DNA of 64,000 nucleotides from Escherichia coli. Lineage in GTDB: Bacteria; Pseudomonadota; Gammaproteobacteria; Enterobacterales; Enterobacteriaceae. The stretch lies in the NCBI RefSeq assembly GCF_002854065.1, contig NZ_CP024147.1; one strand, written 5' to 3'. How positions within the stretch are numbered: the first letter of the stretch is position 1; each line of letters begins with the position of its first letter. Shown here piece after piece: positions 30,001 to 39,000 of this stretch. The position numbers were made by a program.

Positions 30001-33000
30001 GATACCCACGCTAAAGTCATCGACGGCTTTACCCCTCGCGATTACTTAACCCACTGGTTAAGTCAGTGGGTCCGCGACTATGGGATTGATGGTTTTCGGG
30101 TCGATACCGCCAAACATGTTGAGTTGCCCGCCTGGCAGCAACTGAAAACCGAAGCCAGCGCCGCGCTTCGCGAATGGAAAAAAGCTAACCCCGACAAAGC
30201 ATTAGATGACAAACCTTTCTGGATGACCGGTGAAGCCTGGGGCCACGGCGTGATGCAAAGTGACTACTATCGCCACGGCTTCGATGCGATGATCAATTTC
30301 GATTATCAGGAGCAGGCGGCGAAAGCAGTCGATTGTCTGGCGCAGATGGATACGACCTGGCAGCAAATGGCGGAGAAATTGCAGGGTTTCAACGTGTTGA
30401 GCTACCTCTCGTCGCATGATACCCGCCTGTTCCGTGAAGGGGGCGACAAAGCAGCAGAGTTATTACTATTAGCGCCAGGCGCGGTACAAATCTTTTATGG
30501 TGATGAATCCTCGCGTCCGTTCGGTCCTACAGGTTCTGATCCGCTGCAAGGTACACGTTCGGATATGAACTGGCAGGATGTTAGCGGTAAATCTGCCACC
30601 AGCGTCGCGCACTGGCAGAAAATCAGCCAGTTCCGCGCCCGTCATCCCGCAATTGGCGCGGGCAAACAAACGACACTTTCGCTGAAGCAGGGCTACGGCT
30701 TTGTTCGTGAGCATGGCGACGATAAAGTGCTGGTCATCTGGGCTGGGCAACAGTGACTTTTCCGGCTTCCCGTTCGTCAGTACCTCGGGAAGCCGCCAAC
30801 CAGGATAAAATGTCAGCCCTAATCAGCGTTGCAGGATAAAGCACCACTCACTCTTCAACAGACCGATTTGCACCCCAGCAAATGTAGCGTTATTGTTACC
30901 TTCCTTGCTACAGAGTTCGACAGATATCCCGCTATGACATTCTCCCTTTTTGGTGACAAATTTACCCGCCACTCCGGCATTACGCTGCTGATGGAAGATC
31001 TGAACGACGGTTTACGCACGCCTGGCGCGATTATGCTCGGCGGCGGTAATCCGGCGCAGATCCCGGAAATGCAGGACTACTTCCAGACGCTACTGACCGA
31101 CATGCTGGAAAGTGGCAAAGCGACTGATGCACTGTGCAATTACGACGGTCCACAGGGGAAAACGGAGCTACTCACACTGCTTGCCGGAATGCTGCACGAG
31201 AAGTTGGGTTGGGATATCGAACCACAGAATATTGCACTAACAAACGGCAGCCAGAGCGCGTTTTTCTACTTATTTAATCTATTTGCCGGACGCCGTGCCG
31301 ATGGTCGGGTCAAAAAAGTGCTGTTCCCGCTGGCACCGGAATACATTGGCTACGCTGACGCCGGACTGGAAGAAGATCTGTTTGTCTCTGCGCGTCCGAA
31401 TATTGAACTGCTGCCTGAAGGCCAGTTTAAATACCACGTCGATTTTGAGCATCTGCATATTGGCGAAGAAACCGGGATGATTTGCGTCTCCCGGCCGACG
31501 AATCCAACAGGCAATGTGATTACTGACGAAGAGTTGCTGAAGCTTGACGCGCTGGCGAATCAACACGGCATTCCGCTGGTGATTGATAACGCTTATGGCG
31601 TCCCGTTCCCGGGTATCATCTTCAGTGAAGCGCGCCCGCTATGGAATCCGAATATCGTGCTGTGCATGAGTCTTTCCAAGCTGGGTCTACCTGGCTCCCG
31701 CTGCGGCATTATCATCGCCAATGAAAAAATCATCACCGCCATCACCAATATGAACGGCATTATCAGCCTGGCACCTGGCGGTATTGGTCCGGCGATGATG
31801 TGTGAAATGATTAAGCGTAACGATCTGCTGCGCCTGTCTGAAACAGTCATCAAACCGTTTTACTACCAGCGTGTTCAGGAAACTATCGCCATCATTCGCC
31901 GCTATTTACCGGAAGATCGCTGCCTGATTCATAAACCGGAAGGAGCCATTTTCCTCTGGCTATGGTTTAAGGATTTGCCCATTACGACCGAGCAGCTCTA
32001 TCAGCGCCTGAAAGCACGCGGCGTGCTGATGGTGCCGGGGCACAACTTCTTCCCAGGGCTGGATAAACCGTGGCCGCATACGCATCAATGTATGCGCATG
32101 AACTACGTACCAGAGCCGGAGAAAATTGAGGCGGGGGTGAAGATTCTGGCGGAAGAGATAGAAAGAGCCTGGGCTGAAAGTCACTAAAAATTGCCTGATG
32201 CGCTACGCTTATCAGGCCTACATGAGTTCTGCAATATATTGAATTTGGAAGAATTTGTAGGCCGGATAAGGCGTTTACGCCGCATCTGGCATAAACAAAG
32301 CGCACTATTCCGGCGTTTAGAAACGCTGGAAAACGTTTCAAACAGGCTGCTGCCGTAGCCGATGCCGCTGCACTTTCTCGACATCCATGCACTGCAACGC
32401 CTTTGTCGGGCAGGCTTCAACACAGGCCGGTCCCGTCGCCCGATGCCAGCACAGATCGCACTTAATCGCCCTCGCCTTTTTGCGCGAAGAAACGACCTCC
32501 ATCGCACCAAACGGGCAAGCCAGCATACAGCTTTTACAGCCAATGCAACGTGTTTGTTCAACGAAAATATGCCCATGTTCGCGGCTTATCGCGTCAACAG
32601 GGCAGACATTCGCGCACGGTGCATCTTCACACTGATGACAGGCTACTGCCGTGGTCCAGCTGTGGTCTTTAATGACACGAATACGGGAAATAAACTCGTC
32701 TGGTGACAACGCAGCGCAATCCTGATTCTCCTGATGCGACACTGCGCAAGCCACTTCACAGGTACGGCAACCGATACATTTCGTCGCATCCGCAATAATA
32801 AACCGGTTCATGATCACTCCTTTGCACTAAAACAGCAGAGTGCCAGAGAGCGCGTCCCTACTGCTTTGATCCAACGAAGGAAATGTTAAAGTTTTGGCAC
32901 TTGTCCAAAGCGTTATGTGATCGCGCCCAGGTCATCCCTGACAGTAAATCCCAGTTCATTAGAAATAGCCTGCGCGGTTTCACGCAGTGGTTTCAGGAGA

Positions 33001-36000: not shown

Positions 36001-39000
36001 GGCCGATCATATCGACAGCGTATTTGGTCCAGATGAAAGTAAGTTACACGGTTATCCTGGTCACCCGGAAATTGAACTGGCACTAATGCGCCTGTATGAA
36101 GTGACTGAAGAGCCGCGCTACCTGGCGCTGACGAACTATTTTGTCGAACAGCGTGGTGCGCAACCGCACTATTACGACCAGGAATATGAAAAGCGCGGGC
36201 AGACATCGCACTGGCACACCTACGGCCCGGCATGGATGGTGAAAGACAAAGCCTACAGCCAGGCACATTTGCCCCTTGCGCAACAGCAAACCGCCATCGG
36301 TCACGCGGTACGTTTTGTCTATCTGATGACCGGCGTCGCGCATCTCGCGCGTTTAAGTCACGATGACAGCAAGCGTCAGGACTGCCTGCGGCTGTGGAAC
36401 AATATGGCCCAGCGTCAGTTATATATTACCGGCGGCATTGGCTCGCAAAGCAGCGGCGAAGCGTTCACTAGCGATTACGATCTGCCGAATGACACGGTAT
36501 ACGCTGAAAGTTGCGCCTCCATCGGCCTGATGATGTTTGCCCGACGAATGCTGGAAATGGAAGGCGACAGTCAATATGCCGATGTGATGGAGCGCGCACT
36601 GTACAACACCGTGCTCGGCGGCATGGCGCTGGATGGCAAACATTTCTTCTATGTGAATCCGCTGGAAGTACATCCAAAATCGCTGAAATTCAACCATATC
36701 TACGATCACGTTAAACCGATCCGCCAGCGTTGGTTTGGCTGCGCTTGTTGTCCGCCAAATATCGCCCGCGTGCTGACCTCGATTGGTCATTATCTCTACA
36801 CGCCGCGTGAAGATGCGTTGTATATCAACATATACGCAGGAAACAGCATGGAAGTGCCGGTAGAAAATGGCACGCTGCGCCTGCGGGTTAGCGGGAACTA
36901 TCCGTGGCAGGAGCAGGTGACGATTGCGGTTGAATCGCCCCAGCCGGTACGTCATACGCTGGCTTTACGTCTGCCGGACTGGTGCACACAGCCGCAGATC
37001 ATATTGAATGGGGAAGAGGTCGAGCAGGATATTCGTAAAGGGTATTTGCACATTACCCGCGAATGGCAGGAGGGCGATACGCTGAATCTGACTTTGCCGA
37101 TGCCGGTACGCCGCGTTTACGGTAACCCGCTGGTGCGTCACGTCGCCGGAAAAGTGGCGATTCAGCGCGGCCCGCTGGTGTATTGCCTGGAACAGGCCGA
37201 CAACGGCGAGTCACTGCATAATCTGTGGCTGCCCACCGATGCGCCATTTACGACATTTGAAGGCAAGGGATTGTTTAGCCATAAGATCTTAATCCAGGCA
37301 CCGGGTTACCGGTATGAACAGAGCAATCCAGAGCAGCAACCGCTGTGGCATTACGACAGCGCGCCAGCCAAACGCCAGACGCAAACTCTGACCTTTATCC
37401 CATGGTTTAGCTGGGCCAACCGGGGTGAAGGCGAAATGCGGATCTGGGTGAATGAGGAAAAGCATTGCCATCCGTAGGTTGGATAAGGCACTCGCGCCGC
37501 ATCCAACGTAAGGAGCACATTGCCTGATGCGACGCTTAACACGTCTTATCAGGCATACAAGTCGGTGCGAGAGCGTAGGCCAGCCGCACCGACATCCACC
37601 GGTGAATTAAAAACGCCAGCTCACGCCGGTGACAAAGGTAAAACTCTCATTACGATCAATCATCGGGCTGTCGGTAATCTCTTCCGGCAGCTCGCTGTAT
37701 CCGGCGCTCGCCATCAATACGACGTGCTCTCCTATCGGGTATTTTGCCGTCAGGCTGACATAGGGCACCCAGGCATCCTGCGCGGAATAACTTGCCAGAC
37801 CGCTACGACGGGACTCACTCTCTGAAATGCCATAGTAATAGTCACTGAAATTCTCGTCATAATAGAGAACGCCCAGCGCAGGTGTCAGCGACAGACGACC
37901 TATCTGCATTTTGTGGAATACCGATAGCTCCCCCACCCAGCCGTTGCTGTTATCCAGAACGTCCGCAGCTGCAGAGGCTTTCACGGTTCCCCAACGCTCG
38001 TGGTGATACCAGGCAACCCCCGCCATAGCCGTACTATCACGCTTATCAAGCTGTTGCATGGCATAATCGTCATTATCGGCAGGGTCAAATTCCAGCGGCA
38101 TCCAGGATGCGGTCAGGCTAAGTTCATTTTTTTCACTTTGCGACAGAATAAAACCTAACGTGGTCTGACGAACATAAAAAGAATCACCTTCATAACTAAT
38201 CAGGGGAATTGCCTTTGTATTTTCATTATAACCGCGATAAGGCGATTCATTATAAGCCGCACCAGCACCAATGGATAATTCAGAAGCAGTTGCGCTTGCC
38301 ATAAAAGGCAACGCAAATAACGCCACAATATTGCGGTTAATTAACATGTCCGGTATTCCATTTTAAAATAAGATAAAAAAGAGTCGGCATAGTAATGCTT
38401 ACAATTTCTCCGGTGCAAGATTCATATTTATATAGTAATATATAAAATTATATATAATTGGGCTGTTGCGATGACAAAATTACAACTTAAGTACCGGGAG
38501 TTAAAAATTATCTCGGTAATCGCTGCCAGTGAAAATATCAGCCATGCTGCGACTGTACTTGGCATCGCACAGGCCAACGTCAGCAAATACCTTGCTGATT
38601 TTGAATCAAAAGTGGGTTTAAAAGTCTTTGACCGAACCACCCGGCAGCTGATGCTCACACCTTTTGGTACCGCGCTGTTACCGTACATCAACGACATGCT
38701 GGACAGAAACGAGCAGCTTAATAATTTTATTGCAGATTATAAGCATGAGAAACGTGGTCGGGTCACCATCTACGCCCCAACCGGCATAATTACCTATTTA
38801 TCCAAACATGTAATCGATAAAATTAAAGATATCGGTGATATAACCTTATCGCTAAAAACCTGCAATCTTGAGCGTAATGCCTTTTATGAAGGCGTCGAAT
38901 TTCCTGATGATTGTGATGTTTTAATCAGCTACGCTCCACCAAAAGATGAATCGCTGGTTGCCAGTTTTATTACACAATATGCCGTAACCGCTTATGCCAG

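Follow-up and report, generated by a model that had tools for sequence, protein, structure and literature searches.

We analysed a 64,000-nucleotide stretch of an Escherichia coli chromosome (contig NZ_CP024147.1 of assembly GCF_002854065.1; hereafter the window), in which the genes follow the order malS, avtA, ysaA ... yiaT, yiaU, yiaV, and focused on the interval between ysaA and yiaT. This interval holds three intact open reading frames (ORFs), an AraC-family regulator on the minus strand, divergent from a GPH symporter and a GH127 glycosidase, which RefSeq labels 'AraC family transcriptional regulator', 'MFS transporter' and 'glycoside hydrolase family 127 protein'. A first-pass annotation of the window, made from its sequence alone, had described them as a sugar-utilisation cassette at the site where K-12 carries yiaJ through sgbE. 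Its assignment of the three ORFs to the AraC, GPH and GH127 families was correct, in agreement with profile searches (Pfam, TIGR00792), as was the 10-bp gap that it reported between the transporter stop codon (35494-35496) and the GH127 start at 35507. The features of the locus are listed below with the evidence for each.

32913..33053, minus strand: 3′ stub of yiaJ (IclR family), colinear with the yiaJ 3′ end in strain EC0026B
33050..33053: deletion junction with CGGC microhomology, from a three-way base-level comparison
33055..33870, minus strand: AraC/XylS-family regulator of 271 amino acids (aa), from Pfam
33948..33963: CRP-like site CCTGATCTATTTCACA, from conservation across 16 genera
33975..34011: conserved block AGGTCGGAATCGTCACCTTTTTTTAC...CGCC, from the 16-genus alignment
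34013..34040, plus strand: predicted weak sigma-70 promoter of the GPH-GH127 operon, from hexamer conservation
34096..35496, plus strand: GPH:cation symporter of 466 aa, from TIGR00792
35507..37477, plus strand: GH127 glycoside hydrolase of 656 aa, from Pfam and PDB homologues
37471..37593: two repetitive extragenic palindromic (REP)-type hairpins and a 9-bp hairpin, from an inverted-repeat search

The genes, their arrangement and the likely mechanism are all of known kinds, and together they form a standard regulator-transporter-hydrolase module. What distinguishes the locus is its relation to the neighbouring cluster. The gene order in E. coli EC0026B is ysaA, yiaJ, yiaK-L-M-N-O, lyxK, sgbH (ulaD), sgbU, sgbE (araD), the AraC-type regulator, the MFS/GPH transporter, GH127 and yiaT. 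The cassette thus adjoins the yiaJ-sgbE site, with both in one row, instead of occupying it; the location in the ysaA-yiaT interval given by the first-pass annotation was right, and the equation with the K-12 yiaJ-sgbE site was not. Among 5426 complete E. coli genomes, whose alleles were assigned by junction-specific queries, the full arrangement with yiaJ-sgbE and the cassette adjacent was present in 1883. The window-type junction, in which the yiaJ stub is fused to the 3′ end of the regulator gene, was found in 426 genomes, mostly O157:H7 with a few others, and the K-12-type junction in 2462. In a further 481, ATCC 25922-type B2 strains, sgbE is joined straight to aldB and everything from the regulator to yiaW is missing, and about 170 genomes carry other alleles, for example an insertion sequence (IS)1-associated deletion from yiaJ to selB. 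At least five structural alleles thus exist at this locus, which is a deletion hotspot. The cassette is covered to at least 80% in 2311 of the 5426 genomes; it is intact in 43% of the complete genomes, O157:H7 and ST131 among them, and not intact in 57%.

Two of these alleles showed further details. The ATCC 25922-type B2 strains (L085:18908-21188), which lack the regulator, GPH, GH127, yiaT, yiaU, yiaV and yiaW altogether, carry an additional DUF4862 gene between yiaL and yiaM. In E. coli 2015C-3121 (L086:9576-10669), IS1A joins a truncated yiaJ to selB and yiaK to yiaY have been removed, which constitutes the fifth allele.

The distribution of the cassette outside E. coli was obtained by scanning a single genome for each bacterial species. 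Orthologues of the GH127 enzyme with 76-96% amino-acid identity occur across Enterobacteriaceae, and in nearly all outgroup loci the gene is likewise accompanied by the GPH gene upstream and by the divergent regulator. The cassette is preceded by sgbE in Citrobacter youngae, Enterobacter, Klebsiella, Raoultella, Lelliottia, Pseudocitrobacter, Salmonella enterica subsp. diarizonae, Kosakonia and Phytobacter, and by ysaA in C. gillenii, C. portucalensis, C. amalonaticus, Leclercia, Silvania and some Enterobacter. Downstream, yiaT-yiaU follow in 24 fetched loci from Citrobacter, Enterobacter, Leclercia, Lelliottia, Silvania, Pseudocitrobacter and Huaxiibacter. Some of the cassette-bearing genera never show yiaJ. 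This synteny indicates that the cassette is ancestral at its position before yiaT and has been more widely retained than the yia-sgb cluster, and that the ancestral order was ysaA - yiaJ - yiaKLMNO-lyxK-sgbHUE - [regulator <> GPH - GH127] - yiaT. The first-pass annotation had itself named an ancestral cassette as the outcome that would speak against its replacement model, and this is essentially the outcome that the outgroup synteny and the 1883 genomes show.

The junction at the left border of the cassette suggests how the window came to differ from this order. The yiaJ stub at 32913-33053, which had been estimated at about 45 codons, consists of 46 sense codons and a stop codon and aligns with the yiaJ 3′ end, being colinear with EC0026B positions L001 4884-5024 of the annotated yiaJ (L001 4884..5732). 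In identical strains RefSeq labels it as part of the C-terminal domain of an IclR-family protein; it is a non-functional remnant. The switch in homology falls at CGGC (33050-33053), 1 nt ahead of the stop codon of the AraC-type gene (33055-33057), so that a breakpoint originally placed near 33054 could be resolved to these four bases. In EC0026B, CGGC is present at both flanks, inside yiaJ (L001 5021-5024) and 2 bp beyond the regulator stop (L001 14008-14011), embedded in an imperfect 11-mer (ATCGaCaCGGC / ATCGcCcCGGC). Compared with the full arrangement, the window lacks 8987 bp, comprising the 5′ part of yiaJ through sgbE and most of the spacer between sgbE and the AraC-type gene. At the level of aligned bases, the junction bears the signature of a simple microhomology-mediated deletion. 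A single illegitimate recombination between the CGGC microhomologies would have removed the 8987 bp in the window lineage, leaving the regulator gene with a dead remnant of yiaJ joined to its end.

We also looked for a yiaJ stub in Citrobacter amalonaticus and C. sedlakii, both of which are without the yia cluster, and rejected it; the C. amalonaticus spacer is of similar length and unrelated in sequence, so the junction is specific to Escherichia. Within this genus, Escherichia sp. E1V33 (L003:7295-7695) has exactly the same yiaJ-stub/regulator junction as window positions 32800-33200, at only ~90% DNA identity to the window over 10 kb. Escherichia whittamii (L004:5925-7636) shows another state, in which yia-sgb is present, an excision has removed the coding sequence of sgbE almost exactly (nothing corresponds to L001 13283-13976) and the regulator directly follows sgbU.

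No integrase, IS or tRNA was found at the borders of the cassette, the left border being the deletion junction and the right one REP elements. The right edge had been placed at REP elements by the first-pass annotation, and between the stop codons of GH127 and yiaT we located two REP-type hairpins (37471-37514 and 37521-37555) and, at 37561-37593, a further, perfect hairpin of 9 bp. The REP core GCCTGATGCGACGCT has 4 matches in the window against 0.2 expected. The length of this right-edge segment varies among strains, with matches ending at query positions 4661, 4761 or 4769. An Rfam scan of 32300-38500 matched no family.

The opposite loss is visible in K-12. Relative to the full form, K-12-type genomes have deletions of 4021 bp and 210 bp, leaving about 34 regulator codons and a 190-bp piece of GH127 between sgbE and yiaT. 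In MG1655 these leftovers are annotated as pseudogenes: ysaC (b4648) represents the final ~34 regulator codons and ysaD (b4649) the 190-bp piece from the GH127 3′ region, whereas the cassette genes are intact in the window. Their annotation as pseudogenes implies that curators had already recognised gene loss at the K-12 locus; a literature search on ysaC/ysaD biology found no paper. The ysaD piece is 89.5% identical to intact alleles (window 37180-37369 versus L002:3117-3306), compared with 97-99% for the flanking DNA, a divergence that would fit either long neutral decay once the deletion had occurred or an origin from a divergent allele. K-12-type strains would thus have retained yiaJ-sgbE and deleted the cassette instead.

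These data bear directly on the possibility that the cassette is an accessory insert that replaced yiaJ-sgbE at the same chromosomal site. On a K-12-based map, yiaJ-sgbE takes up the spot that the cassette has in the window, a yiaJ stub adjoins the cassette, and the intact cassette genes are missing from 57% of complete genomes, all of which could suggest a replacement. However, the two gene sets lie side by side in EC0026B and the other genomes with the full arrangement, K-12 itself has remnants of the cassette, and the cassette is syntenic in many genera, including those that never show yiaJ. Mobile-element features are absent, and the junction is that of a simple microhomology deletion. What characterises a horizontally acquired island was therefore not found here, given the coexistence with yiaJ-sgbE, the multi-genus synteny and the lack of mobile-element signatures. 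We ruled out a replacement island and give the insertion scenario almost no credence; the comparisons indicate that the window shows the deletion of a neighbour, not an acquisition. What seemed a strain-specific replacement cassette when viewed from K-12 is the ancestral state, with K-12 being the deleted genome, which illustrates that gain and loss can appear reversed when K-12 is the point of reference.

Because the locus is a deletion hotspot and over half of the genomes are without an intact cassette, one might instead regard the cassette in the window lineage as a decaying or silent relic without current function, heading towards a K-12-like loss. The ratio of nonsynonymous to synonymous substitution rates (dN/dS) speaks against this view. 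For the three genes, dN/dS was 0.03-0.06 even against E. whittamii, for which the synonymous distance is unsaturated (dS 0.44-0.61), and 0.03-0.11 against other genera; per gene, it was 0.05-0.11 for the regulator, 0.03-0.06 for GPH and 0.03-0.07 for GH127. All three cassette genes are under strong purifying selection. In addition, the three ORFs are full-length with respect to profiles and orthologues, the promoter and Shine-Dalgarno blocks are conserved, and the GH127 remnant in K-12 has, by contrast, drifted to 89.5%. A relic is hence very improbable. We consider it likely that the window carries an intact, vertically inherited enterobacterial catabolic operon next to a deletion of its neighbour, an operon for which we infer the substrate, the inducer and the promoter logic from the features described below.

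The GH127 ORF could start at 35483 or 35507, of which the ATG at 35507 is the most plausible, being preceded by AAGGAG at a distance of 7 nt and coinciding with the RefSeq start in EC0026B. The protein matches PF07944 (1.2e-111, model 3-375/376), PF20736 (1.3e-23) and PF20737 (3.2e-25), representing the catalytic (alpha/alpha)6 domain and the middle and C-terminal beta domains of GH127 (formerly DUF1680). Its closest solved relative is Ara127N (AraN) of Geobacillus stearothermophilus T6 (PDB 4QJY/4QK0), which has the same length and three-domain build, with a match of 782 bits and ~55% identity over 628 aligned residues to 4QJY, deposited as a GH127 beta-L-arabinofuranosidase. The match to HypBA1 of Bifidobacterium longum (3WKW), the founding member of GH127, is full-length at 507 bits, and lower-ranked chains 6EX6 and 5MQO, which we take to be Bacteroides enzymes, scored 386 and 319 bits. 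Residues E322/E338/C340/C417/C418 of HypBA1 align with E318/E334/C336/C414/C415 in the motifs GEAF, ESC and GCACCPPN. The Cys triad, for which a check had been proposed, is therefore complete, all three Cys, the Glu of the zinc site and the acid/base Glu being conserved. The sugar-contacting residues His142, His194 and His270 of HypBA1 lie in motifs that show no difference between the aligned sequences. HypBA1 uses Cys417 as its nucleophile and Glu322 as its acid/base, and a (Cys)3-Glu site holds its Zn2+ (PMC8106489). The N terminus of the E. coli enzyme, MNISEVDLHKLTVSDPF..., read directly from the sequence, has no signal peptide, from which we deduce a cytoplasmic location, and the gene is translationally close-coupled to the GPH importer gene. 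The enzyme is presumed to be a cytoplasmic beta-L-arabinofuranosidase (EC 3.2.1.185), and the first-pass proposal of a beta-L-arabinofuranoside as the likely substrate class appears correct.

The transporter scored 331.5 bits against the GPH:cation symporter model TIGR00792 (TC 2.A.2), with a cut-off of 231.35 and coverage of profile positions 1-437/437. Its nearest named NCBIfam subfamilies are YagG and YicJ; the scores of 354 versus a cut-off of 610 for YagG and 323 versus 836 for the YicJ type, and likewise those for the MelB and UidB models, are below the equivalog cut-offs, so that none of the named carriers is its equivalog. It is presumably the importer of the glycoside substrate. The yicJ-yicI and yagG-yagH pairs of E. 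coli are modules of the same type, a GPH carrier followed by a cytoplasmic glycosidase, although their glycosidases belong to GH31 and GH43 instead of GH127. A second GPH+GH127 pair, ~70% identical, is located elsewhere in the genome in Citrobacter gillenii and in a gut Enterobacteriaceae assembly (L081, L082). In Bradyrhizobium spp. (L073-L080), the encoded GH127 shares 71% identity with the E. coli enzyme, and no GPH transporter or regulator homologue linked to it was detected in the fetched DNA.

The regulator has the domains PF02311 (residues 26-132, 1.3e-9), PF12833 (184-263, 4e-19) and PF00165 (5e-8), i.e. the C-terminal double helix-turn-helix and the N-terminal AraC-type cupin ligand domain of the AraC/XylS family. 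It is not AraC itself, as the best NCBIfam match, AraC (NF007860), reached 61.1 bits against an equivalog cut-off of 208. We presume that it is a sugar-responsive activator of the divergent operon, as its family and position suggest. Between genera, the regulator is 60-85% identical at the amino-acid level, compared with 79-94% for the transporter and the enzyme (L005-L079), and Citrobacter spp. contain two regulator classes with ~68% and 82-85% identity to that of E. coli.

The divergent intergenic region is 215-240 bp long and 68% identical overall in the 16-genus alignment, with sharply conserved blocks. The CRP-like sequence CCTGATCTATTTCACA matches TGTGA-N6-TCACA at 8/10 positions, and its centre precedes the operon start, predicted at about 34047, by ~91 bp; its core positions G4, A5, C7 and T12-A16 are invariant in the 16 genera and the neighbouring bases vary (GA.C....TCACA, 33951-33963). 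We retain it as a putative CRP site supported by this conservation. The block at 33975-34011, with invariant column runs 107-114 and 121-130 in the 16-genus alignment (A2), abuts the predicted -35 element and may, from its position at about -72 to -36, be the binding site of the activator. The candidate -35 hexamer TTGTTG (34013-34018) and the candidate -10 hexamer CAGAAT (34035-34040), separated by a 16-nt spacer, are both invariant or nearly so in the 16 genera, as is, without variation, a GAGGA Shine-Dalgarno sequence (34085-34089) upstream of the GPH gene. At araC-PBAD, CRP binds at about -91 and AraC at AraI I1-I2 from -72 to -36, positions that the predicted blocks here resemble. The divergent AraC-type protein together with CRP would then activate a weak promoter in response to a sugar, in a PBAD-like layout.

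In the mechanism that we propose, the GPH symporter would import a small beta-L-arabinofuranoside, the cytoplasmic GH127 cysteine-glycosidase would cleave it to L-arabinose, and the L-arabinose would enter the araBAD pathway. Candidate substrates are beta-1,2-L-arabinobiose or Araf-beta-hydroxyproline, which other gut- or plant-associated microbes may free from plant extensin-type glycoproteins. The same logic of import followed by cleavage applies to HypBA1, with which the catalytic residues and the zinc site are shared. In B. longum, secreted GH43 and GH121 enzymes free Araf-beta1,2-Araf from hydroxyproline-rich glycoproteins, and the disaccharide is imported and split by intracellular HypBA1 (PMC7263609). 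XeHypBA1 (XCV2724) of Xanthomonas euvesicatoria, a Gram-negative GH127, frees L-arabinose from hydroxyproline-linked beta-L-arabinofuranosides (PMC6085000). In contrast to the E. coli enzyme of 656 aa, which lacks a signal peptide and is coupled to an importer, XeHypBA1 is an extracellular protein of 791 aa with a signal peptide (PMC6085000). The locus differs in another way from that of Ara127N, which belongs to a Gram-positive multi-gene arabinan cluster with ABC transport, whereas here a minimal set of regulator, GPH and enzyme is found. Ara127N is intracellular and encoded in a cluster for L-arabinan/arabinose utilisation, and its cloning and crystallisation were reportedly described by Lansky et al. 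in 2014.

Several points weigh against the interpretation of the locus as an operon for beta-L-arabinofuranosides that lost its neighbour by deletion. The identical junction in E1V33 is not simply explained by one recent deletion; it could be an old shared polymorphism, an ancient introgression or a recurrence at the same microhomology. The CRP pattern by itself is no better than chance, with 30 matches in the window versus 27.5 expected, and a strict consensus scan of the intergenic region for promoters and terminators found nothing, which is nevertheless consistent with an activator-dependent weak promoter. B. longum takes up the disaccharide by an ABC importer with a beta-Ara2-specific binding protein and not by a GPH carrier, and the E. 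coli locus contains no such ABC system. Our literature search retrieved no published biochemical evidence for the activity of Ara127N, and no experiment on the E. coli GH127 or a close enterobacterial orthologue, nor a characterisation of the operon. Finally, the GH127 family also includes aceric-acid hydrolase and 3,6-anhydro-D-galactosidases, and with several specificities in the family, membership does not fix the substrate.

The last of these points raises the question of whether the operon is functional with a GH127 substrate other than a beta-L-arabinofuranoside, such as another furanoside, a branched-chain acidic sugar (cf. BT1003), an anhydro-sugar or a plant secondary-metabolite glycoside, which the GPH carrier would then import. 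Apart from the range of known GH127 specificities and the lack of retrieved biochemical data for the enterobacterial clade, this idea draws on the GPH relatives YagG and YicJ, which are poorly defined themselves, and on the sole NCBIfam match of the enzyme, the aceric acid hydrolase model (NF049879, BT1003-type). We rejected the latter as an assignment, because its 455.7 bits are less than half of the 950-bit cut-off and the best stretch, residues 260-657, covers only the C-terminal 60%. Conversely, the matches to 4QJY and HypBA1 are full-length and far stronger than those to 6EX6 and 5MQO, and the sugar-contacting His residues of HypBA1 sit in motifs identical in the alignment. A different substrate thus seems unlikely to us, and a beta-L-arabinofuranoside remains our preferred assignment.

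The locus encodes no secreted GH121 or GH43, from which we infer that the strain would scavenge beta-L-arabinofuranosides released by others. A further, more specific step would be that the operon is dedicated to beta-L-arabinobiose or Ara-hydroxyproline freed by other microbes, for instance bifidobacteria with secreted GH121, and that the presence/absence polymorphism of the locus, with its five or more structural alleles and a junction common to different Escherichia species, reflects niche-dependent selection. We put this forward tentatively, as a possibility that we would not favour at present. If true, it could bear on the colonisation of plants and the gut by O157:H7 and on the co-segregation of GH127 with invasive isolates from inflammatory bowel disease (IBD). 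In a pangenome study, the GH127 of E. coli is listed among the accessory genes that co-segregate with epithelial invasion in IBD isolates, with its function assigned by homology only (PMC11879602; commentary in PMC11954838). More generally, the operon would represent a well-conserved enterobacterial route for a rare plant sugar linkage, and the identity of its substrate would add to the nutrient niche of E. coli and could be relevant to bifidobacterial cross-feeding.

Elsewhere in the window, at 51559-51735, three perfect copies and one single-mismatch copy of TGTGA-N6-TCACA lie within 180 bp upstream of mtlA (51879..53792), whose product is the PTS mannitol IICBA; these palindromes presumably correspond to the known multi-CRP-site mtl promoter.

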